From UHGV virus genome UHGV-1544975: DNA of 31,654 bases, one strand, 5' to 3'. Position numbers and translations under genes: made by a program. Origin of the DNA: a virus. The notes under the pieces are model-generated. The model saw only the letters and a program-made list of their open reading frames with translations, was not told where the DNA came from and ran no database searches. Below are positions 7,691-26,458 of this stretch, in pieces. The stretch's first letter is position 1. Each line of letters starts with the position of its first letter.

Positions 7691-8235
7691 TATAATCCTC
7701 CGGGTAATCTGGTTCCTGCTGCTGCCCCGATTGGCGCAGGAGTTCTTTGAGTAAACGGACTCCACGTCCCACCAAACATCTGGTATGCACCGTATGCCTT
7801 CAGAGGCGCAGTGAGCAATGTTGTTGCTGCTCCCACATTCCCCTGTTTACGGGCTGAACTGGCTTCTGCTTTATAGTTGGCAGCCTGAACCTGATAACCG
7901 TAAGCCTCGCGTTGCGCGTTATTCACCGTCGTCAGCGAATCAAGAGCGCCAAACTGGGCAGTGTCGCCAAATATATCCAGCGCGTTACCGGTAGATAAAT
8001 CGGCGCCGGTCGCCCCCATTGTCGCCGCCTGTGTACCAAGCCGCTGTCGTGTCTCTCTGCGCCGTTGCTCAGCTTCAGCGTTACCTCTGTTTATTGCATC
8101 ATTTGCCTGAGCTGTGGCTATATCTGCGTTCGCTTCTGCAACCTTCGAGGCATACTTTCCCTGTTGGTACTGGGTGTATGCCTGAATGCCACTCATGGCG
8201 AGCATTGCGCCACCAGCAATAACCGGATCGCACAT
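7690..8235 (-). CDS. T7 gp14-like internal virion protein B (181 aa)
   Basis: N-terminus MCDPVIAGGAMLAMSGIQA resembles T7 gp14 N-terminus MCWAAAIPIAISGAQA from memory; size and position fit. Confidence 0.4.
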   Translation of the reverse strand: MCDPVIAGGAMLAMSGIQAYTQYQQGKYASKVAEANADIATAQANDAINRGNAEAEQRRRETRQRLGTQAATMGATGADLSTGNALDIFGDTAQFGALDSLTTVNNAQREAYGYQVQAANYKAEASSARKQGNVGAATTLLTAPLKAYGAYQMFGGTWSPFTQRTPAPIGAAAGTRLPGGL

Positions 8236-8699
8236 TATTTTCTCTCCATGTGAAATCTGTGGAAATTAAGACCAAGAGCACCATAAGGCGCGGCTTCTTC
8301 AAGCCTGAATCCAAGCCAGTGCAGCCATGCTTTGGCAACATGGTTTCGCTCGTCGACGTAGTTTTCCAGGCGCGGATAAACTGCCAGCATCTGCTGCAAT
8401 ACAGGGCGGCAGTGGCGCAGAAATGTCTTCTGATATTTTTCAATACGGCTGGTTCCTACCAGCCAGGGCGTACCATTGCCACCGATCATTGACGCCGGAG
8501 ATACACCAAACATGGTCACCAGTTCTCCGTTCGCGAACCCTGACCAGGCCATAGTCGCAGTGCGAAGACCAACGCGCAGCGCATCTTCGGTAGTCATCAG
8601 CGATACCGCATACAGTTCGTCAATATCAGCCTGACGAACATCCGGCAAAATCATCTGAAGATGCTCTTCGGTAGCGGGAATAATTTGAACATCGATCAT
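8235..8699 (-). CDS. Virion-module protein (154 aa), possible GNAT-like fold; internal virion protein A position
   Basis: Segment NYVDERNHVAKAWLHWLGF resembles GNAT motif B; positional analogy to T7 gp13; translationally coupled to neighbours. Confidence 0.3.
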   Translation of the reverse strand: MIDVQIIPATEEHLQMILPDVRQADIDELYAVSLMTTEDALRVGLRTATMAWSGFANGELVTMFGVSPASMIGGNGTPWLVGTSRIEKYQKTFLRHCRPVLQQMLAVYPRLENYVDERNHVAKAWLHWLGFRLEEAAPYGALGLNFHRFHMERK

Positions 8700-11170
8700 C
8701 AGAATCCCCCAACAGTAAGGCGAGGAATAACGGCAAGAACAGACAGCGGCAACGGGTCAAGCTGACGGATTCTTACACGTCCGTTTTTGCCCCAGTTACT
8801 GTCAAGTTTCACTTCTACTTTTCCGGTAGCGTCATCAACAGGATCATCGTAGAACTCGAATTCACGCTGTTGATATTCGTACCATTTACCGCCGGGCGTA
8901 GTCGCCCAGATGCCGCGGCTGGCATTCACAACCAGAGTAACGGATGGGATCACCTGTTTTTTGTCCAGCAGCGTTTCCTGTCCGTTAATGTTGATATCCA
9001 GTGTTTCGAATTCAGCAGTTATTGGCAGGCCGATGTGCACTACAGCCCCCGGTGATTCCAGCGTGACGGCACCTCCGGAAACTACTTTCTGTGGTTCCAC
9101 GTTCGCATCAGAGAGGATGTTTACGGTCTGACCTTCAAGATGAGACAAGCCGCCAAATGCCCGGCGCGCCATCTGCCAGTTCGTGGTGGCCACATTCCTG
9201 ATGGATGGCGGGACGTTCCTGTTAGCACGAACCACTACAGCGGTGTTGCTGGTTACAGAAATAATGTCGCAACGTAATTCTTTTGACACTTCATCGCCAG
9301 TATCAGGATCAGTTCCGGTATAAGGGAACTGTAGTTGCGCACCGACATCACTACTGGTGAAGTACGCACCACCAGAAACACTGATTGTATATTCCGCGCG
9401 GTAATCCCATTCACCAGAACCACCAGTGATGGTCATCGTTCTGTCAGACGTATTTCTTCCATCATAGCTAAGGCCAGAATCAACAAAGAAAGCATCTTCA
9501 TCGCTGGTAAATAAACGGCTGGACAGTCGCTCGATGTATCTCACTGTTTGCCCGTTAACGGTTCGGTTAACGACGAAATACACCGCATCTTCATTGCCTT
9601 CGCTGATACTGCATGTGCTTTCATATTTTCCGGTACTGGACTGTGGTGCCCATGCAAAAACCTGTTGATCACGCAGATAGGTCATCACCAGTAATTTACC
9701 GTCATCACGAATGCAGAAGGCGCTGGAGTAAGGGACAATAGAGAAGCACCAGTCAACAATGCTGTGCTTCTGAAAAAGATGATTGGCAAGGATGGTCAGG
9801 TCGTTCCCCTGATAGCCGTCAACATCGAATGAGTAGGCCAGATCACGGACAACACTGCCTTTCTCCTGGACGAACAGAGCAATATTCGCCACGGCAATTG
9901 GTGGGACATTGCTCGAGCCATTTGATCCCTGAGAGCTGAATGCAAATGATGATGGGGTTAACACTTTGTTCTGGTCGCCGGTGATGACGTACTCACCTCC
10001 GGAAGTCAGTGCCACCAGCGAACCGACATCAATCAGGTGGCGGATCTCATTAACCTGACGCCCGGCATAGGTGTAGATAATTCTGTCGTCATCCTGCGTA
10101 GGATTGCTTTTGCCAAAATCCTTATAATCCCCGGTACGGCTGGCCCAGATAGTCTGAGGGAACGCAGTCGATGCGGCGAAGTAAAGGCGTTGTTGATAAT
10201 AAACAACAGTGCCAGGATAACCGTTAATACTGTTCCAGGCATATTTAGCCCATTTATAGCTGGCATTATCCTCGCCAACTACCTGCGAAGGGATATAGGA
10301 AATCACCTCGGCAGTTGCAGTAGTTCCATTTGCAGCAGAGATACGGGCAATGCCAAAACCACTGTGCAGATACTCCCACTCAATGCCGGTATCATCATCA
10401 CCGGATCCGCCCCAGCCATCCCATGATGTGCCTTCTGTATGCGAAGGGCGCAAAGTGCCTGTTTTGCCTGCTGTAACGGCGCGATAGTAGTTACTGTCTG
10501 CACGGCGAATATCGCCAATCGACGTACTCTTACTGGTTTCCCATACCGGCACAGAATCCACTGCAGGCTGTTCCAGATAGAACAATTTGCCTACCTGCTC
10601 CGCGCCAAAAATTGAGGCGCTTGCCGTTAACGTAATTGTCCCGGTGCTGGCGCTGGCATAAACCGTCACTGACTCGTCAATATTGATATCTTCAAATGGC
10701 CCGTTCTTCGTTACCACATCAACCAGTTGCCAGTTGTCATGCGCATAGCGGCGCAACTCTTTCGGCGGGTATGCCGGATGAACCAGCGTAAGCACGTCTG
10801 CGCTTTGCGTGAATTTAATTCGGAACAGATCGGCTTCAGTATATGGCGTGGCAATTTCATAAATAACATTGCTGCTGTTCAGCACCAACGCACCATCTTT
10901 GATAACGCGCATGTACTGGTGTCCGAACTCCAGAGCATAAGTCTGAACCGTCGAGAACTGGAACGGGATCAGGCGGCATTTCCGATTTGGGTATTTGGCG
11001 GCACCGACAAAACGCGTACCAGGTCGATTCTCAACGCCGCCATACTGCCGCACGATAAAGTTATCGCACTTGCGCAATGCCACCTGGTACTTCGCCATGT
11101 CGATACGACCGTACAACGACGGTCCAATCTCACCACCGGCAAAGCTGGGCTGGATCCAACTGATAGCCAT
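8699..11170 (-). CDS. Tail tubular protein B-like (nozzle), T7 gp12-like (823 aa)
   Basis: Follows the adaptor-like gene; N-terminus pattern GGEIG...NRPG resembles T7 gp12 from memory; size matches. Confidence 0.5.
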   Translation of the reverse strand: MAISWIQPSFAGGEIGPSLYGRIDMAKYQVALRKCDNFIVRQYGGVENRPGTRFVGAAKYPNRKCRLIPFQFSTVQTYALEFGHQYMRVIKDGALVLNSSNVIYEIATPYTEADLFRIKFTQSADVLTLVHPAYPPKELRRYAHDNWQLVDVVTKNGPFEDINIDESVTVYASASTGTITLTASASIFGAEQVGKLFYLEQPAVDSVPVWETSKSTSIGDIRRADSNYYRAVTAGKTGTLRPSHTEGTSWDGWGGSGDDDTGIEWEYLHSGFGIARISAANGTTATAEVISYIPSQVVGEDNASYKWAKYAWNSINGYPGTVVYYQQRLYFAASTAFPQTIWASRTGDYKDFGKSNPTQDDDRIIYTYAGRQVNEIRHLIDVGSLVALTSGGEYVITGDQNKVLTPSSFAFSSQGSNGSSNVPPIAVANIALFVQEKGSVVRDLAYSFDVDGYQGNDLTILANHLFQKHSIVDWCFSIVPYSSAFCIRDDGKLLVMTYLRDQQVFAWAPQSSTGKYESTCSISEGNEDAVYFVVNRTVNGQTVRYIERLSSRLFTSDEDAFFVDSGLSYDGRNTSDRTMTITGGSGEWDYRAEYTISVSGGAYFTSSDVGAQLQFPYTGTDPDTGDEVSKELRCDIISVTSNTAVVVRANRNVPPSIRNVATTNWQMARRAFGGLSHLEGQTVNILSDANVEPQKVVSGGAVTLESPGAVVHIGLPITAEFETLDININGQETLLDKKQVIPSVTLVVNASRGIWATTPGGKWYEYQQREFEFYDDPVDDATGKVEVKLDSNWGKNGRVRIRQLDPLPLSVLAVIPRLTVGGF

Positions 11171-16965: not shown

Positions 16966-16982
16966 ATTACCTTTCAGGTAAG
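16966..16982. promoter_or_regulatory. Operator-like palindrome ATTACC-TTTCA-GGTAAG upstream of the portal operon
   Basis: One of about nine copies of the ATTACC-N5-GGTAA motif. Confidence 0.45.
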
Positions 16983-17303: not shown

Positions 17304-17380
17304 GTGGCATTAGCTCAGTTGGACAGAGCAACCGCCTTCTAAGCGGTTGGTCGCAGGTTCGAATCCTGCATGCCACGCCA
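17304..17380 (+). tRNA. tRNA-Arg (anticodon UCU), 77 nt including 3' CCA
   Basis: Folded by hand: perfect 7-bp acceptor stem GTGGCAT/ATGCCAC, D-stem GCTC/GAGC, anticodon stem ACCGC/GCGGT, loop CTTCTAA, T-arm GCAGG-TTCGAAT-CCTGC, discriminator G, CCA. Confidence 0.9.
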
Positions 17381-17423
17381 GAATCACGCCTAAGGACCGT
17401 GATGCCAGAAGTTCCAGGTGCTT

Positions 17424-17465
17424 GGCGGTGATGGTTTCCCTTGAAGGACTATCACCGCCCTTTTT
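17424..17465 (+). terminator. Rho-independent terminator after the tRNA (GGCGGTGAT...ATCACCGCC then CTTTTT)
   Basis: 9-bp stem plus T-run. Confidence 0.6.
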
Positions 17466-17543
17466 ACAGCAGGACGCCATTGCGATGACTTCATGCTGTA
17501 AACCAGTACAGCCACGGAAGGCATAACTCATTGCTTCCAGTTC

Positions 17544-17567
17544 GCCCGGTTCGCCGGGCATTTTTTT
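17544..17567 (+). terminator. Second terminator-like hairpin (GCCCGG-UUCG-CCGGGC then 7 T) directly upstream of the DUF2829-like gene RBS
   Basis: 6-bp GC stem, UUCG tetraloop, 7-T tract; RBS AAGGTGAG follows immediately. Confidence 0.6.
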
Positions 17568-17578
17568 AAGGTGAGATT

Positions 17579-17875
17579 ATGAGCGAAACATCAACAGTAT
17601 CTTTCTCCACTGCTTTGTCATCACTCAAAGATGGTAAGCGCATTGCACGTGCCGGATGGAATGGCAAAGGCATGTATCTGCAACTGGTTAAGCCACCGCA
17701 ATCGGCCACTCCGAACGAGTGGCGATTTGACGTTACATGCGGTGACGAGTATACATTTGTACCTGGCGTTAAACTTCTACCGTGGATTGGGATGAAAACT
17801 GCTGACGGTTGCTTTGTACCGTGGCTGGCATCTCAAACCGATCTGCTATCTGATGACTGGATTGTAATTCAATAA
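17579..17875 (+). CDS. DUF2829-like small protein (98 aa), candidate Tad2-like anti-Thoeris protein
   Basis: Strong RBS; motifs ARAGWNGKGMYL and PWLASQTDLLSDDW match my recollection of DUF2829; opposite strand to flanking late genes. Confidence 0.5.
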   Translation: MSETSTVSFSTALSSLKDGKRIARAGWNGKGMYLQLVKPPQSATPNEWRFDVTCGDEYTFVPGVKLLPWIGMKTADGCFVPWLASQTDLLSDDWIVIQ

Positions 17876-19441: not shown

Positions 19442-20034
19442 TGATTACCATCCTGACGTTCTTTGAGTCGCTTCCTGGCTGCTGCTATGCGATCAGCAAT
19501 TGTCACATTCACATTAACATCCAGACGTTCTTTGAACGCGTTGACATCAACATGCTTACCAATCAGCTCAAGGTTCTTCACCTTGTCAGGCCATTTAATT
19601 TTTTTGAGGATTGTCTCTATCGAATCCTCGTTCATGTTCATGATGGTCGATGACAGATCAAAGCCACTAAGCGTAGTGCGCCAGATTTTCGGCCACTCAC
19701 GGATTGGTTTAAGGCTCCCATCGTCGTTGAGGATGTCGATCACGTCCATCTGGTCGATCTGCACCAGGCGCATGAGAACGTAATCAGCACTGACGCGCAT
19801 TCGTTTGTTGCGCTCCTCCATCAACTCGGCAATCCGTTTTTGAATGCGTTCATCGCGCATCATGACACTGGCTTTAACTGCCGCTGTATTTGGGGAGAAT
19901 CCTGCGTTAATCGCTGCCTGAGTCTGGTTTTCAGGCGTTTTGATGTATGACTGGCAATAAGCCTCCTGCATTGCTGTTAGTGGCTTAAATTGCGTTGATT
20001 TGCGTTTATAGGTTTTAGGTTCAGCAGGCATCAT
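19438..20034 (-). CDS. Terminase small subunit (about 198 aa)
   Basis: Small-terminase-like DNA-binding N-terminus (TAMQEAYCQSYIKTPENQTQAAINAGFS); track start 20112 is probably over-extended; tandem ATGs at 20034 and 20031 follow GGTGG. Confidence 0.65.
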   Translation of the reverse strand: MMPAEPKTYKRKSTQFKPLTAMQEAYCQSYIKTPENQTQAAINAGFSPNTAAVKASVMMRDERIQKRIAELMEERNKRMRVSADYVLMRLVQIDQMDVIDILNDDGSLKPIREWPKIWRTTLSGFDLSSTIMNMNEDSIETILKKIKWPDKVKNLELIGKHVDVNAFKERLDVNVNVTIADRIAAARKRLKERQDGNQ

Positions 20035-20050
20035 AACCACCGTGGTAATA

Positions 20051-20067
20051 GTTACCGTTGTGGTAAT
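20051..20067. promoter_or_regulatory. Operator-like palindrome (minus-strand reading ATTACC-ACAAC-GGTAAC) with an extra GGTAAT half-site, just upstream of the terminase gene
   Basis: Motif copy read directly; lies inside the spurious N-terminal extension of the track ORF. Confidence 0.45.
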
Positions 20068-20069
20068 AG

Positions 20070-20103
20070 TACCATACAAAATAAAGCCGCCATAGTTGGC
20101 GGC
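20070..20103 (-). terminator. Rho-independent terminator (GCCGCCA-N4-TGGCGGC then UUUAUUUUGUAU on the minus strand) separating accessory genes from the terminase operon
   Basis: 7-bp perfect stem, T-rich tail on the minus strand. Confidence 0.55.
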
Positions 20104-20144
20104 AGTATTCAAAACCCATCAAATTCATCATGCATAATCTACTC

Positions 20145-20156
20145 GTGACATGTCAC
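20145..20156. repeat. 12-bp perfect palindrome GTGACATGTCAC, copy 3 of 3
   Basis: Exact match; overlaps the stop codon of 20153..20494 in the same register as copy 1. Confidence 0.8.
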
Positions 20157-20494
20157 ACTATTAATTTCGTTTCATGCCAGCCTTTAGTCACCCAGCATTG
20201 CGAGTCACCATTACACGGGCATGAATTAACTGGAACTCTCTCGCCGCACTTACCGCAACATTTTCTGCTGATCGATTTTATACGCCCGCGCACGCGTGCA
20301 TCATCCTGGCGGATCAGTAACGCTATATACTCACCAAATTCGTAAGGCGCACGCCCGGGGCGACGCGTGGCACAGTTACGCTCCAGCATTTCAATTTCCT
20401 GAGCATCCAGCACAATCTCCAGCTTACGTACACCGGATGCAGCTTGTCTGGCTCTCTGAGCGGCTTTGCGCTCTGCTGCTGATTTAGCCATCAA
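20153..20494 (-). CDS. Cys-rich small protein (113 aa), possible zinc-binding regulator
   Basis: Basic N-terminus; C-terminal cysteine cluster CCGKCGERVPVNSCPCNGDSQCW; sits where lambdoid phages carry Q. Confidence 0.4.
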   Translation of the reverse strand: MMAKSAAERKAAQRARQAASGVRKLEIVLDAQEIEMLERNCATRRPGRAPYEFGEYIALLIRQDDARVRGRIKSISRKCCGKCGERVPVNSCPCNGDSQCWVTKGWHETKLIV

Positions 20495-20765
20495 TATTTA
20501 CCTTTATCGCGAACACCTTTACCGGTTTATCGCCGAAGTGCGGATGTGTGATTGTCTTGATTTCATATCCGTCATACGGAATATCAATTCTGCGGCTGGA
20601 ATCGTCGCGCTTCGGATATCCCTTTGTGATAATCAGACGGTCATACTTACGGTTAACGAGTCGCTTTTTCCAGTAGTCATTACACAAGCGATACTCTTCC
20701 GTTTTCTCTCCGCGAATCATGGCATTGAAGTATTCACCTTTTACGGCAAGTTGCAGGTTAGCCAT
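20484..20765 (-). CDS. Small protein with possible ASCH/PUA-like fold
   Basis: Likely start at the internal ATG overlapping the upstream stop; LQLAVKGEYFNAMIRGEKTEEYR resembles ASCH-domain N-termini. Confidence 0.35.
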   Translation of the reverse strand: MANLQLAVKGEYFNAMIRGEKTEEYRLCNDYWKKRLVNRKYDRLIITKGYPKRDDSSRRIDIPYDGYEIKTITHPHFGDKPVKVFAIKVNIDG

Positions 20766-21025
20766 TACCGCACCTCCAGTCTCCATACCGCCTGACCAAT
20801 CCGGCTGGCATGGTTATCTTTAGATACTGTTCCGTCTTTAGCAATCTCCATAAGAATTTTGCGCAAATCTGCCGAGCGCCATTCTTCATCAGGAAATTCC
20901 TTCTCCATTGCCAACCGCAGATTCCAGGTTGCTATCGTGAATGGATATTCCCCGCCGAGAGCTTTCTCTTGCAAGGCAGCACGGGAACGCATCACCTGCA
21001 AAACCTTCTCTTTTACATCCATCAT
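20765..21025 (-). CDS. Hypothetical protein (86 aa)
   Basis: ORF translationally coupled to neighbours. Confidence 0.4.
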   Translation of the reverse strand: MMDVKEKVLQVMRSRAALQEKALGGEYPFTIATWNLRLAMEKEFPDEEWRSADLRKILMEIAKDGTVSKDNHASRIGQAVWRLEVR

Positions 21026-21840
21026 TTTGCCTCCTGCGGCGGTTCTGGTAGCTGCATCCAGTGGGTTACCTCTTTGAGATACAGGTCTTCGCCATCACCG
21101 TCATCCCAAGTGGGATTGCCATCATTAAACCAGTCGCCATATACGCCGACCTGAGTGTTGGGGATGTTTGGTGGGTAGTTGTTTTTAAAGTCAGCTGCTA
21201 ACACATAGCATTGTCGCTCTCCCATTTCTGGCATCTGCTCACTACAGCTTATCCAACCATCCGGAGTTACCGGAGAATTGCCACCCTGAACAGTAGGCAT
21301 ATCCGGACCTTTGCGAATCGCCCTGGCAAGATCGATTGGGTCGTCGTACAACCAGTCACCTGTTTGCGGATGATTGGCTTCTGCCAATTGTGCAGCCCAC
21401 TCCAGGCCGTCTTTGTGTCCTTGCAGATAGTCCAGCGGTAACTCATCACTATTACTTACAGGTTCGGCCTGAAGCATGGCGGCGCGGCAGGCGTTCCAGC
21501 CGACAGCTTTTCCGTGTTCAAACGCGCTGTCAAAGTCATCATCAATTTCCATCGCAGCGGGCACAGATACCGGCGCTGGCGGGGCGGTGTAAAGCGGCGT
21601 TACTTCTCGCAGCGGGTCGGCATAAGCATTGCCACTATCGAAGCTGACGTTGTTTTTTGCCCCGCCTCCTGACAGCAACCACGCCACCGGCTCCTGCTCC
21701 ATGCCAGCCGTCAGCGCTTCCAGTGCGATTTTGAAGATTTGCGCATCGAGTTGCGCTTCTTCAAAATCAGGGTAATGGGTTGTTACCGCAAGACGGCGCT
21801 CAAGCTCCTCAATCAACTGCTCTTTCGTAAATTCAGCCAT
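21022..21840 (-). CDS. DUF551-like C-terminal domain protein (272 aa)
   Basis: C-terminal ...GWISCSEQMPE...VTHWMQLPEPP matches my recollection of the DUF551 signature common in enterobacterial prophages. Confidence 0.5.
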   Translation of the reverse strand: MAEFTKEQLIEELERRLAVTTHYPDFEEAQLDAQIFKIALEALTAGMEQEPVAWLLSGGGAKNNVSFDSGNAYADPLREVTPLYTAPPAPVSVPAAMEIDDDFDSAFEHGKAVGWNACRAAMLQAEPVSNSDELPLDYLQGHKDGLEWAAQLAEANHPQTGDWLYDDPIDLARAIRKGPDMPTVQGGNSPVTPDGWISCSEQMPEMGERQCYVLAADFKNNYPPNIPNTQVGVYGDWFNDGNPTWDDGDGEDLYLKEVTHWMQLPEPPQEAK

Positions 21841-21844
21841 ATCC

Positions 21845-22216
21845 CTACTCCCCCTTGATGCCAGCGGCGCTAAGCTTGGTATTCACATCACCTTCAAAAA
21901 TAGGCAGTACACCAATTGCAGCGGCCCAGTTTTTAGCTAACTCAGGGTCAGATGTCTCGTCGGTGTAGTCTGATGCCCGCCACCCAATCAGTCGTTTCTG
22001 ACCAGGAATGTCAGAGTTTCGCTTCTCCGTTGCTTGCTCTAGAGCATTAAGAAGTGTACGTATTTCATGCTGCTGAGTAGAGATGCTTGAGTCTTTGGCT
22101 TCCAGCTCATCAAGCAGCGCCAGCACATCCCGAGTGGGGACCATAAAGTTCGGCATGAAGTTATCTTTTGCCTTTTCTGCTGTTAGGCGCAGCGCCTGTT
22201 TGTCGATGTTGCTCAT
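21845..22216 (-). CDS. Hypothetical coiled-coil protein (123 aa), possibly Ead/Ea22-like
   Basis: Position and composition only. Confidence 0.35.
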   Translation of the reverse strand: MSNIDKQALRLTAEKAKDNFMPNFMVPTRDVLALLDELEAKDSSISTQQHEIRTLLNALEQATEKRNSDIPGQKRLIGWRASDYTDETSDPELAKNWAAAIGVLPIFEGDVNTKLSAAGIKGE

Positions 22217-22866
22217 TGCGCGTCCCCCTTGCGAATCTGGGCGGCGATGTCTTCGAGTACACCATCAGCGAACGAGCGATCGAAATCGCCTTCCGGCGCA
22301 TCATCCATAAACTCTGTGGAGGTCAGTATCATTCGTGCGATGTCCGCAGCGTTCTTCGCTGTGTCTTCGATAAACCCAGCCTCCCATGCAGCCAGCATTC
22401 GGTTGGCAACAAAGTGAGCGCCTTCCTTGTGGGCTTGCGCCCGCACTTCAGCCAGGAAAGCATCGGTGGCTGGAATGGGCTTTTGTGGTGATATAGCAAT
22501 GCGAATTGTCTCAAGGTCTGGATCTGTTTCCGCTGCTGGCACCTTGATATAACCCACCTGCACCCCATTCATGATGAACCTGCGACGGTCATCACATATC
22601 GCCTTTAGCCCCGCATTCTCCGCCGCCAGCGCCGAAAACTTCTCGTGTGCCAACTTAACAGCTGCATCAGCCTGCTTAATTGACTCAATCGCTTTCTGTT
22701 GGTCTTCGGCCAGCGCATTAGCACGCACCAGTTGCACTTCCAGTTGCGTTGCCAAATCGCTGATCAGCTTTGCCACACTGCGCATATCAACGGCACCACA
22801 TTCTGCTTTCAGTTCCGAAGCCATCTCATGCCCGGCGGAAACTAACCATTTGATATTACCGTCCAT
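22213..22866 (-). CDS. Hypothetical protein (217 aa), Ala-rich coiled-coil N-terminal half
   Basis: ORF with 4-nt overlap to the next gene. Confidence 0.4.
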   Translation of the reverse strand: MDGNIKWLVSAGHEMASELKAECGAVDMRSVAKLISDLATQLEVQLVRANALAEDQQKAIESIKQADAAVKLAHEKFSALAAENAGLKAICDDRRRFIMNGVQVGYIKVPAAETDPDLETIRIAISPQKPIPATDAFLAEVRAQAHKEGAHFVANRMLAAWEAGFIEDTAKNAADIARMILTSTEFMDDAPEGDFDRSFADGVLEDIAAQIRKGDAQ

Positions 22867-22927
22867 CTTTACCCTCGCTTATCCACATAACTTATTGATT
22901 ACATTGATAACTAAAAAGATCGTCGAT

Positions 22928-23272
22928 TCAGAACTCTTCGATGTTCCAGCCACCACCTGCTTTCTTTGGCTTAACCGTTACCCCGATGATTCGGAACGGA
23001 TACTGATCTGCGGCGACTTTGGTTTTCACTCTGGCGTCATCGGTCCAGAAACCTTTCACTTCGTGTAGTTCCATCTCGCCGGTGGCGAGCATCACAGCAA
23101 AATCGGGCGTATAGAACGTGTTGTCAGCTAACCGCAGCTTGATACCCTCGAATCGATACCAGGCGATTTCCCCTGCACGTTTACGCAGCTCAAGGTGCTG
23201 GCAATACGCAGATTCTGTTTTGTTCATCTGGCCTGTTTTGAGTCGACCAAGAGCCTGTATCTGTTTTCTCAT
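22928..23272 (-). CDS. Small protein with PD-(D/E)xK nuclease-like motif (DUF1064-like?)
   Basis: Motif ...YTPDFAV...ELHEVKG consistent with a D...(D/E)xK core. Confidence 0.35.
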   Translation of the reverse strand: MRKQIQALGRLKTGQMNKTESAYCQHLELRKRAGEIAWYRFEGIKLRLADNTFYTPDFAVMLATGEMELHEVKGFWTDDARVKTKVAADQYPFRIIGVTVKPKKAGGGWNIEEF

Positions 23273-23274
23273 GA

Positions 23275-23353
23275 TTTACCTCTAAGGTAATTAAAAACCA
23301 CATAAGACACGAAATCAATAGAGTTTAGAATATTTTATTACCCAACAGGTAAT
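23275..23353. promoter_or_regulatory. Two operator-like palindromes (TTTACC-TCTAA-GGTAAT at 23275..23291; ATTACC-CAACA-GGTAAT at 23337..23353)
   Basis: Read directly; the first abuts the start codon of 22928..23272. Confidence 0.5.
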
Positions 23354-23389
23354 TATCAAGGCGTAAAAAAATGCGCTATCGCGCTGGTA

Positions 23390-24190
23390 TTACTTGATAA
23401 ATCCTGCCGCCTTTCCCCGCCTGTATTCCTCCATCAGCCACTGCGCCGGTGTTATTCCCCCAAGGGTGGCGGCGTTAGGCATGCACCCGAAACTTCGCCC
23501 TGGTGGATGGTAAACGTCTCTCCCTGTGTCCGGAGGCGTACTCATGGGTTCTGGCTTTGCCTGTATGCTGATCACCGGATCGGGTATCTGCTGTCCGGAA
23601 GCCACCTTTTTCGCCCAATCATCGAGCAGCCTGCGCGCGTGTTTCTCAACCTCTATCTCGCTAAGCTGGCGCTGATACATTGCACGGCGGGTATCACATA
23701 CGACCCAGTACATAACCGGATGCCGCCACGGGAATCTTTCGGGACCACCAGGATATAAACTTTTTTCCTTGCTGTACCGGTGAAACTCCGTCATCACATC
23801 GTCAATGGTGACGCCAAGAACCATCTTGCTGTCTTTGCACCACTTGATGAATTGCCCTGGCGACGGCCAGAACGGAGATTCACTGGCGCGGGCGTGGCGC
23901 ATACCAGCAGAAACCTGTTCACGGGTTCGGATCCCCCCTTCGGCAAACGCAGCAATCCACTGCTGTTTTGCAGCAACTTCCTGCTCTGGCGTCTTCAGGT
24001 TGGTTACCACTGCCGCCGGAAACAGTTGTTTCAGCTGTTTGAAAAGGGCATCAACAAGCCTCTCTGCTGACATGTTCACCACGTTGTCATTGTTGGTGTA
24101 CTGATGCTCATAACCTGACATGCGAGAAAGGGCTTCTCCGTCACGGTTTTGTATCGCGGTAAAAACGTTGTTCACAAGAAATCCTCCCAT
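23390..24190 (-). CDS. Replication protein P-like (helicase loader), lambda P family
   Basis: Segments FPAAVVTNLK...QQWIAAFAEGGIRTREQVSAGMRHARA...PFWPSPGQFIKWCKD align with remembered lambda P FPASLANRD...RRQWVLAFRENGITTMEQVNAGMRVARR...PFLPSPGQFVAWCRE. Confidence 0.75.
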   Translation of the reverse strand: MGGFLVNNVFTAIQNRDGEALSRMSGYEHQYTNNDNVVNMSAERLVDALFKQLKQLFPAAVVTNLKTPEQEVAAKQQWIAAFAEGGIRTREQVSAGMRHARASESPFWPSPGQFIKWCKDSKMVLGVTIDDVMTEFHRYSKEKSLYPGGPERFPWRHPVMYWVVCDTRRAMYQRQLSEIEVEKHARRLLDDWAKKVASGQQIPDPVISIQAKPEPMSTPPDTGRDVYHPPGRSFGCMPNAATLGGITPAQWLMEEYRRGKAAGFIK

Positions 24191-24987
24191 GCTTCAGGGC
24201 TGTTCCAGTGCGGAACGTTGTTATCAGGTAATGTTGATTGCTTCTGTCTGCTAATCTGCAGCCGCCTTGCCAGCTTCTGCTCCCACTGTGCCTGATGGTA
24301 TGCCTTACCCTCAGCCATCCAGTAAATTCTGAACTCTGCAAGTTCCTGTGCCGTTGGCAGACTGTCCAGGTAGATCCCCTGCAAGGAGCTTTTCCGAAGA
24401 AAGTCATCTGATGGCTGCCATTGTTCATGCATGACAAATTTGCCTAATTGCCCTGGCCCACCAGGAGGAACAAAGTTATTCATCACGGCGTTGTTTGCGC
24501 CGGGGTCATGAGGCACAGAATCCCCGTTTTTTGTCCTGCTCTCCCTCTCTTGGTTAAATGACTGGTTATATGACTGGTTCTGGATCCCGTTTTTGGGATC
24601 ATTCAACATCCCGTTTTTGGGATCATTCAACATCCCGTTTTTGGGTATATTCCCGTTTTCGGTAACATTACCGTTTTCGGGTTCATTGCCCCCCTCCCGG
24701 TTGCCTTTAATGTTCCCGTTTTTGGTTATATTAAGAGAGAAAACCCGCACTCTTTTCGTCGCTCCCTTTCTCTCTCCGGTATCTGAAATAAGCCCCATTT
24801 TCATGAGCGATATAAGCCCGGCCTGCACGGTTTTTTTATTCAGGCAAGTGTCTTTAACGAGGCGTTCTATGCTGGGGTAGCAGAGGTTATATTCATCGGC
24901 TCTGTCAGCCATCGAGAGCAGTATGAGCTTTAATGACGAGCTACCTGGATCTGTCTCCCAGGCCCAATCTGTTGCATGTCTGCTCAT
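24172..24987 (-). CDS. Replication initiator, lambda O-like (271 aa), with embedded iterons
   Basis: N-terminal HTH-like region; central Asn/Gly/Pro-rich repeats encoded by tandem DNA repeats; immediately upstream of the P-like gene. Confidence 0.65.
   Translation of the reverse strand: MSRHATDWAWETDPGSSSLKLILLSMADRADEYNLCYPSIERLVKDTCLNKKTVQAGLISLMKMGLISDTGERKGATKRVRVFSLNITKNGNIKGNREGGNEPENGNVTENGNIPKNGMLNDPKNGMLNDPKNGIQNQSYNQSFNQERESRTKNGDSVPHDPGANNAVMNNFVPPGGPGQLGKFVMHEQWQPSDDFLRKSSLQGIYLDSLPTAQELAEFRIYWMAEGKAYHQAQWEQKLARRLQISRQKQSTLPDNNVPHWNSPEAWEDFL
24585..24732. repeat. Iteron array (putative replication origin) inside the O-like gene
   Basis: TCCCGTTTTTGGGATCATTCAACA occurs twice in tandem, followed by degenerate copies (TCCCGTTTTTGGGTATAT, TCCCGTTTTCGGTAACATTA, CCGTTTTCGGGTTCATTGCC, TTCCCGTTTTTGGTTATATT). 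Confidence 0.65.
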
Positions 24988-25282: not shown

Positions 25283-25298
25283 ATTACCTTTGAGGTAC
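25283..25298. promoter_or_regulatory. Imperfect operator-like palindrome ATTACC-TTTGA-GGTAC
   Basis: Read directly. Confidence 0.35.
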
Positions 25299-25584: not shown

Positions 25585-25738
25585 AGCTATTGCCTGATAT
25601 TTATTTCAGATAATAAATATTCACCCATAAGGTAACAAAAATCAAGGATAGTTACCTATGGGGTGCATTTACCTGTTGGGTAATATTGCTTTAAATTGAA
25701 TCATCTACTGATTCATATATGAGGCGATTTTCCAGAAA
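25585..25738. promoter_or_regulatory. Immunity switch intergenic region with divergent promoters and operators
   Basis: AT-rich inverted repeat ATATTTATT-N6-AATAAATAT (25597..25620); half-sites GGTAAC (25631..25636) and GTTACC (25651..25656); palindrome TTTACC-TGTTG-GGTAAT (25668..25684); possible minus-strand promoter TTGTTA-17-TATTAT. Confidence 0.55.
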
Positions 25739-26379: not shown

Positions 26380-26458
26380 ATTACCTTACGGGTAATTTTT
26401 TTAACTCATATCTATTGACACCAAACCAAATAAGCATAATTATTACCCCAACGGTAAC
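26380..26458 (+). promoter_or_regulatory. Early-operon promoter flanked by two operator palindromes
   Basis: ATTACC-TTACG-GGTAAT (26380..26396); -35 TTGACA (26415..26420), 17-nt spacer, -10 AATTAT; ATTACC-CCAAC-GGTAAC (26442..26458) over the -10/+1. Confidence 0.5.

Follow-up and report, generated by a model that had tools for sequence, protein, structure and literature searches.

A variable accessory gene block of a known kind, with the signals of a putative operon, between the replication and terminase genes of a phiV10-like Escherichia coli prophage

The virus genome UHGV-1544975 (31,654 nucleotides; this entire stretch is referred to here as the window) carries a block of small genes between the replication gene P and the gene for the small terminase subunit, terS. 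An initial annotation of the sequence had proposed that this block is an accessory cluster and a possible hotspot of counter-defense or host takeover functions. We found that the block is a variable hotspot, but one of an already known kind. Our preferred reading, to which we assign a probability of about 0.6, is that it is the early accessory operon ("ea/nin-type") of a temperate phage related to phiV10, in which a constant frame of genes holds a shuffled cargo. The new aspect is that the block looks like an operon of its own, as suggested by a promoter-like sequence with an embedded palindrome upstream of the first gene and a strong predicted terminator downstream of the last one.

E. coli ECSC054 carries the window as a prophage that adjoins guaA and is phiV10/epsilon15-like (Uetakevirus-type), phiV10 being a member of the genus Uetakevirus. 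In the RefSeq annotation, this prophage of ~31.6 kb encodes an integrase, RecT and YqaJ, a repressor, replication proteins, terminase, and podovirus-type structural proteins. The stretch 20100-23400 matches the ECSC054 chromosome with 100% identity and phages phiV10, TL-2011b, and phiv142-3 piecewise. Among 5,426 complete E. coli genomes, at least 80% of the accessory stretch was found in one, the source genome itself, and 3,096 genomes match parts of the block. The exact sequences of all seven proteins are already public under the names used here, on 70 to more than 1000 contigs. As initially annotated, the block is located between replication and terminase genes, with P (23390-24190) on one side and terS on the other.

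All genes of the block are on the minus strand. In the order of reading, they encode a DUF1064 protein (22928-23272, 114 amino acids), an Eae-like protein with a conserved N-terminus, a long helix or coiled coil, and a mosaic body (22213-22866, 217 amino acids), an Ead/Ea22-like protein (21845-22216, 123 amino acids), a DUF551 protein (21022-21840, 272 amino acids), an Eaa protein (20765-21025, 86 amino acids), a protein with an ASCH/PUA-like fold (20484-20765, 93 amino acids), and a protein that we denote g113 (20153-20491, 112 amino acids). The coordinates originally given for the DUF1064, DUF551, and ASCH genes are correct. Of the seven genes originally placed within 20484-23272, six lie inside this interval; the seventh, g113, overlaps its lower edge by 8 nucleotides. 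The tight translational coupling noted earlier can be read directly from the gene junctions, of which five of the six from DUF1064 to g113 are overlapping or 4 nucleotides apart: ATGA overlaps at 22216/22213 (Eae-like/Ead-like) and 21025/21022 (DUF551/Eaa), a TAATG overlap at 20765 (Eaa/ASCH), an 8-nucleotide overlap at 20491/20484 (ASCH/g113), and a 4-nucleotide gap between the Ead-like stop and the DUF551 start (21845/21840). The only separated pair is DUF1064 and the Eae-like gene, 61 nucleotides apart.

To analyze the variability of the block, we collected 80 viral contigs with a TerS at least 98% identical to that of the window; 56 of these contigs and the window encode both P and TerS and make up the comparison set of 57 loci. 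Across this set, the P-to-terS interval ranges from 1737 to 5790 bp, and the neighborhoods comprise 55 gene orders and 122 strict protein clusters, which is incompatible with a block of syntenic housekeeping genes, the finding that the initial annotation had named as its own refutation. The variation is confined by a constant frame that consists of DUF1064, which is the first gene in 55-56 of the 57 loci, the 5' end of the Eae-like gene, which is second in 52, and g113, which is last in 56. The ASCH gene is semi-constant, being penultimate here and present in 24 loci, always adjoining g113. The remaining genes are variable cassettes: the versions found here occur in four (Eaa), two (DUF551), and one (Ead-like) of the 57 loci.

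At the DNA level, conservation (counted at 85% or higher identity) is at least 0.93 below 20500 and above 22700, about 0.5 over the ASCH gene, and 0-0.36 between the ASCH gene and ~22700. Within the Eae-like gene, DNA is conserved only above ~22650-22700, and this profile places the left boundary of the slot inside that gene. Thus, the hotspot stands, but the variable slot (~20500-22650) is narrower than the interval first proposed. Homology breakpoints cluster at the gene junctions (20490-20504, 20760-20774, and 21015-21029) and where the DUF551 domain starts and ends; the Eae-like gene contains three more such points, at which internal segments are swapped in the protein alignment. In the relatives, the slot sometimes carries genes for Lar (PF14354, E = 7.8e-9, above the cut-off), a Mom-like protein (below the cut-off), a PAPS-reductase-domain protein, HNH proteins, NinX, DUF4752, and DUF7739; the slot of the window contains no Lar, Mom-like, or PAPS-reductase genes. 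Like the phage accessory regions described by Silas and co-workers (bioRxiv 10.1101/2023.04.06.535777), the block thus combines conserved flanks, present in 55-56 of the 57 loci, with a differing middle of exchanged small genes. Unlike the genes of this block, some of those in the published regions have been shown to counter defenses or trigger cell death; none of the present families is named in the text of that study.

The closest known counterpart of the block is found in phiV10 (gp45-gp55) and other epsilon15-like phages, where P is followed by a terminator, DUF1064, an eae-like gene, variable small genes, ASCH, a "transcriptional regulator" homologous to g113, a terminator, and terS. In the phiV10 annotation, the same frame spans gp44-gp55, with one terminator marked behind P and another behind gp55, and P, DUF1064, and TerS are 96-99% identical to those of the window (DNA or protein). 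The middle differs: there are nine genes between DUF1064 and g113 in phiV10 compared to five here, and what the two have in common is limited to ASCH and the 5' portion of the eae-like gene.

The cargo itself has a wider distribution. In the P22-like phage MG40, Eae-like, Ead/Ea22-like, Eaa, and ASCH genes are arranged in the order seen here, with a terminator behind them. The P22 ea region (eaA, eaD, eaE, and others), to which the cargo is homologous and collinear, likewise consists of small, coupled, dispensable genes. The P1-like phage RCS47 encodes Ead/Ea22-like, DUF551, Eaa, and ASCH proteins in that order, and Stx phages carry the same DUF551-eaa-ASCH block with ~93% identity. Because the same gene order is found in P22-like and P1-like phages, we regard the block as a known mobile ea array, placed where phage lambda has its nin region. 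The location differs from that in P22-like phages, whose leftward early operon carries the array with the recombination/abc genes on one side and xis on the other (abc2, erf, and xis being its neighbors in MG40); in the present prophage, P and terS flank the array, which is read in the direction of cro. The lambda nin region, which extends from P to Q, starts just after P, is preceded by a terminator, and contains dispensable small genes including that for the junction nuclease Rap or RusA. The present block resembles it in its location just after P, the terminator in front, the small genes, and DUF1064 as a predicted junction nuclease. It differs in that the window encodes no nin gene family (NinX is found in relatives) and no Q antiterminator, and in that terS, not Q and the lysis genes, directly follows the block.

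The signals that could make the block a separate operon start immediately downstream of P. A weak terminator-like hairpin (GCGC-GAUA-GCGC followed by U7; 23365..23384, minus strand; -7.4 kcal/mol, z = -1.0) is below the threshold of the scan tool, is invariant in the 57 relatives, and is annotated as a putative rho-independent terminator in phiV10. It is followed by a putative sigma-70-like promoter, TTGATA-16-TAAAAT (23332..23359, minus strand), that matches the consensus at 10 of 12 positions. The promoter spacer contains the palindrome TTACC-N5-GGTAA (23338..23352, either strand), a putative repressor operator, and the sequence TTACCTGTTGGGTAA exactly fills the spacer. A second TTACC-N5-GGTAA (23276..23290, either strand) overlaps the ribosome site of DUF1064. 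At the other end of the block, a strong intrinsic terminator with a 7-bp stem that includes six G-C pairs (20077..20103, comprising 20086-20103 and a T run; minus strand) gave a predicted RNA fold of -16.2 kcal/mol (z = -3.6). Downstream of it, two TTACC-N5-GGT(A/T)A palindromes (20034..20066, either strand), both invariant in 81 sequences, are located directly before an ATG of terS at ~20034. RefSeq starts terS at a TTG at 20112, and the first 26 codons of this gene model contain the strong terminator and the two palindromes. A 1-nucleotide indel in this stretch in six relatives indicates that it is non-coding and that translation starts at the ATG at ~20034, the equivalent of which is the annotated start in TL-2011b; the RefSeq start is probably wrong. 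Upstream of the strong terminator, the perfect 12-bp palindrome GTGACATGTCAC (20145..20156, either strand) can be read in the sequence overlapping the g113 stop codon; it falls within a weak match to a promoter and hardly varies among the relatives.

The TTACC-N5-GGTAA palindrome is highly overrepresented, with 10 occurrences in the window (at most one mismatch) against 0.48 expected. The copies (16967-16981, 20034-20066, 23276-23352, 25284-25298, 25621-25683, and 26381-26457) are located at the heads of nearly every operon. Between the cro-like and repressor genes, there are two copies and a third, with two mismatches, that can be read from the sequence; others are found around a PL-like promoter (two copies), after the cro terminator, and before the head genes (16967). 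In nine related prophages of seven other genera, the repressors of which are 42-73% identical to the present one, this is the most frequent palindrome and it occupies the same places, including a syntenic pair at the DUF1064 promoter and a syntenic site before terS. Judging from this distribution, TTACC-N5-GGTAA is probably the operator of the prophage repressor, which is the likeliest binder given the cluster of palindromes between the cro-like and repressor genes. Our literature search yielded nothing specific on an operator of phiV10- or epsilon15-type phages. The set of sites looks like a dispersed repressor regulon that would be more similar to that of P1 C1 than to the lambda arrangement; if the palindrome is indeed the repressor operator, this group of phages silences each operon directly and not through a lambda-style cascade.

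In the palindrome within the promoter spacer, the half-sites are invariant, whereas the N5 spacer exists in 24 variants among 56 relatives; the second site has six N5 variants in 58 sequences. More generally, the 132-nucleotide spacer between P and DUF1064 (23325-23360 region) is invariant in the 57 near-identical relatives except for a few positions occupied by three or four different bases. These positions, with an entropy of up to ~1.7 bits, belong to the -35 hexamer, the operator N5, and a few bases around the -10 hexamer and the start site, and change far faster than synonymous sites in the neighboring gene; the -35 hexamer and operator spacer upstream of DUF1064 differ at almost every relative. 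An RNA hairpin with covarying bases was considered as a cause and rejected because mutual information among the variable columns showed no complementary pairing. Invariant half-sites around a changing N5 fit a protein-binding site better than a stem. One idea is that the hypervariable positions tune expression to the changing cargo.

Among the frame proteins, DUF1064 had been described as PD-(D/E)xK-like, and this assignment holds: the Pfam DUF1064 match (PF06356, 31 bits against a cut-off of 24.7, E = 3.7e-7) is significant, the catalytic motif is present, and DUF1064 has been classified in the PD-(D/E)XK superfamily (PMC1189080). The protein also matches phrog_190, "Holliday junction resolvase" (E = 7e-43). 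Alignment with endonuclease I of phage T7 (gene 3, a Holliday junction resolvase; z = 7.7 against shuffled sequences) showed that the two share the catalytic D and E-x-K triad within a common core, YTPDF...E-x-KG-x-W (YTPDF...HEVKGFW in DUF1064), such that D57 (in YTPDF), E71, and K73 (both in HEVKG) correspond to T7 D55, E65, and K67. The T7 enzyme is larger, with 149 amino acids compared to 114. The match to the Pfam family Phage_endo_I (PF05367) is below the cut-off (14.9 against 29.1 bits) and, therefore, DUF1064 at best "works like" T7 endonuclease I without being a filed member of this family. DUF1064 is most likely a small nuclease of the PD-(D/E)xK type, its active site resembling that of T7 endonuclease I, and would cut branched intermediates of replication or recombination.

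The other constant protein, g113, has a basic N-terminus, which may be ribbon-helix-helix-like, and a C-terminal cysteine cluster. It matches phrog_536, "transcriptional regulator" (E = 8.5e-55), and more weakly an NCBIfam LexA-regulated protein (E = 0.052), and on this sequence evidence is probably a DNA-binding protein. Homologs of g113 are present in many Enterobacterales, including lambdoid-type prophages of Pantoea, Citrobacter, Enterobacter, Providencia, and Rouxiella (loci L090, L091, L093, L094, L096, L098, L099, and L104, around 8000-10500). Several of these homologs are followed by a terminator, and most have nin-type genes, not terminase, downstream. Given that the homologs elsewhere precede nin-type genes, g113 seems to be a portable module that is not tied to the late genes. 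A role as a Q-like regulator of late genes, suggested by its position before a promoter-like site, a terminator, and terS, was rejected because the homologs do not precede late genes and g113 matches no antiterminator family.

For the 93-residue protein, the initial annotation had proposed an ASCH/PUA-like domain. The predicted fold supports this proposal with a PUA-like beta-barrel that is closest to solved ASCH proteins, but the Pfam profile does not: the ASCH match (PF04266; 13.6 bits against a cut-off of 21.2, E = 0.11) covers only the first 24 profile positions, and no precomputed Pfam domains were found on 120 homologs. The ASCH identity of this protein is, thus, supported by the fold only. 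Across several genera, 30 sequences of the family that are 74-92% identical to the query keep 36 positions invariant. The structural model additionally matches ~100 residues of a 168-residue viral "restriction alleviation protein" (BFVD A0A8S5UN54, E = 1.9e-5); this resemblance between models is only a lead. In one relative (locus L015), a Lar gene is located directly upstream of ASCH, and there may be a functional link between Lar and the present ASCH family.

Of the cassette proteins, that encoded by the Eae-like gene is named "eae-like domain protein" in the sources. The coiled coil noted earlier corresponds to one long predicted helix (residues 26-104; predicted local distance difference test [pLDDT] score of 74-84); the structural model is poor overall (pLDDT 60, predicted template modeling score 0.29), and its C-terminal half is unreliable. 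The helix together with the swapped segments is suggestive, in this protein, of a tripartite build in which a short N-terminal part and a coiled coil precede an exchangeable C-terminal domain. Such a build has been described for the early-expressed lambda Ea22 type, one Stx-phage variant of which carries DUF551 (PMC10834534). The Ead/Ea22-like protein matches phrog_19867 (E = 1e-49), whereas its match to Pfam Ead_Ea22 (PF13935) is below the cut-off (24.1 bits against 27) and limited to residues 30-51; PHROG and the NCBI Prokaryotic Genome Annotation Pipeline (PGAP) nonetheless place it with ead/Ea22-like proteins. It differs from lambda Ea22 in being shorter, in scoring below the Pfam cut-off, and in its genome position. 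PDB sequence searches with the DUF551, Eaa, Ead-like, and g113 proteins returned nothing meaningful, so the Ead-like protein matches no solved structure, including that of the C-terminal domain of lambda Ea22; for the Ead-like protein and g113, there was no Pfam or NCBIfam match of note either.

The DUF551-like assignment is borne out by a full-length Pfam match far above the cut-off (PF04448, 69.9 bits against 22, E = 3.5e-19; residues 195-269 aligned with profile positions 1-68 of 68). The protein consists of an N-terminal module, a linker, and the C-terminal DUF551 domain, with phrog_5117 and phrog_660 covering residues 1-125. RefSeq/PGAP starts the gene at 21702, which yields 226 amino acids. 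The start at 21840 (272 amino acids) appears better supported because it has a GGGGAG ribosome site, lies 4 nucleotides past the upstream stop, and gives PHROG matches from residue 1. Eaa matches phrog_2814 (E = 3e-51), is named "eaa protein" by PGAP, and has no Pfam, NCBIfam, or PDB match. A full-library search recovered a small family of phage proteins of 60-140 amino acids and a few fusions; many matches of Eaa in multiple stretches to large proteins were discarded as apparent chance similarity of helical repeats.

Under the preferred reading of these data, transcription of the replication genes would be partly stopped by the weak terminator after P and immediately restarted from the sigma-70-like promoter, with the 15-bp palindrome in the promoter spacer serving as the repressor operator. 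Loss of the repressor would then yield a single mRNA from DUF1064 to g113 that stops at the strong terminator before terS. DUF1064 would take the role that Rap or RusA has in lambdoid nin regions. Cassettes would be exchanged with P22-like, lambdoid/Stx, and P1-like phages by recombination at gene and domain junctions, probably helped by the RecT/YqaJ pair of the phage itself, the genes of which are present in the same prophage. The cassette proteins would be dispensable and most likely work at an early lytic stage by binding to proteins or nucleic acids of the host, thereby adjusting its replication, its stress pathways, and the balance between lysis and lysogeny, in keeping with reports on lambda Ea22 and the exo-xis region. 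That region has been connected with synchronization of the cell cycle, with the choice between lysis and lysogeny, and with inhibited replication of host DNA, and Ea22 is a pro-lysogenic, tetrameric, mosaic protein (PMC10834534). The DUF551 protein YfdS belongs to the yfdQRST set of a cryptic prophage, the overexpression of which inhibits chromosomal initiation (PMC4776307). Host takeover fits the published record better than counter-defense, the other function initially envisaged, and among relatives of the cargo, modulation of the host is the role with the best documentation.

Several observations weigh against this reading. The promoter, terminators, and operator are known only as sequence matches; among them, the -35 hexamer is poorly conserved in relatives, and the hairpin after P is weak (z = -1.0). 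The palindrome copies that coincide with ribosome sites might instead work at the RNA level, or Cro or a different factor might bind them. The nuclease assignment of DUF1064 is based on a short motif alignment, with a sub-threshold match to Phage_endo_I. In the yfdQRST set, the DnaA binder is YfdR, not YfdS (PMC4776307), and the phenotypes of Ea22 may not transfer because the Ead-like protein is below the Pfam cut-off and differs from lambda Ea22 in its C-terminus. An anti-defense role of any single cassette is possible and compatible with the present evidence.

That the block as a whole is a counter-defense island, with cassettes that inhibit restriction or abortive infection and a slot that varies as host defenses vary, is unlikely in our assessment but has several observations on its side. 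The extreme variability of the slot compared to the constant frame is what defines phage accessory regions in published work (bioRxiv 10.1101/2023.04.06.535777), and the Lar, Mom-like (sub-threshold), PAPS-reductase-domain, and HNH genes occupy this very slot in relatives. In P22-like phages, the array adjoins abc2, which encodes a RecBCD inhibitor; the ASCH model resembles part of a viral "restriction alleviation protein," and PUA-type folds read modified bases in restriction enzymes (PMC7897488). Early, repressor-controlled expression, if it occurs, would suit such a function as well. However, none of the seven proteins matches a known anti-restriction or anti-defense family (Lar, Mom, Ocr, Ard, and others) in Pfam, NCBIfam, or PHROG, which are general libraries and not a dedicated anti-defense profile set. 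In our literature search, we found none of DUF551, Eaa, Ead/Ea22, and the stand-alone phage ASCH proteins credited with such an activity, and the published phenotype of Ea22 is developmental (PMC10834534). A related and, we think, quite unlikely scenario is that Ead/Ea22- and DUF551-type proteins form a polymorphic effector system traded among Uetakevirus, P22-like, lambdoid, and P1-like phages, in which a short conserved scaffold, N-terminal or coiled-coil, would present swappable C-terminal domains, each neutralizing a different host (including defense) protein, with the dosage set by a fast-evolving, repressor-gated promoter.

The variability could also be mostly neutral, the conserved junctions creating a recombination hotspot in which most cassettes are of little or no benefit. 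The breakpoints located exactly at gene and domain junctions, the rarity of many cassette versions (one to four of 57 relatives), the common truncated and fused forms, and the occurrence of the same cassettes in unrelated phage types and positions are all in line with this explanation. We nevertheless consider it very unlikely given the intact, tightly coupled reading frames, the presence of the exact protein sequences on 70 to more than 1000 contigs, the gene order kept across three phage lineages, and the 36 positions of the ASCH family that are invariant in 30 sequences. A benefit to the host, through expression in the lysogen for phage defense or stress tolerance, appears highly improbable. 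The related prophage phiv142-3 has been reported, in work cited in PMC9782041, to raise stress survival of the host, yfdS mutants have been reported to be peroxide sensitive (PMC4776307), and the block promoter is sigma-70-like. Yet a PADLOC scan of the block proteins gave no significant match (best E = 0.032, 10.5 bits), the cassettes are translationally coupled and have no promoters or terminators of their own, and, with the putative operator lying over both the spacer of the promoter and the first ribosome site, the block is predicted to be silent in the lysogen.

Few unexplained genes of E. coli and Salmonella prophages are as common as those of the ea type. The fixed frame and defined slot with junction-precise swaps provide a clean design for deletion and cassette-swap experiments, and the likely repressor control yields a testable prediction on the timing of expression. 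Unless a function of a cassette is found, current understanding is unchanged.

Two other features of the window are of note. Inside the O-like replication gene, six iteron-like direct repeats (24584-24736; ~18-24 nucleotides, with the core TCCCGTTTTTGG) encode a repeated NGN...PKNG peptide and are probably the phage origin. An Rfam scan of the window produced a single match, a tRNA at 17304-17377. This tRNA-Arg gene and a DUF2829 gene (17304-17875, plus strand) are located on the strand opposite to the block, between terL and the portal operon, and look like a small inserted module, followed by the palindrome copy at 16967 ahead of the head genes.

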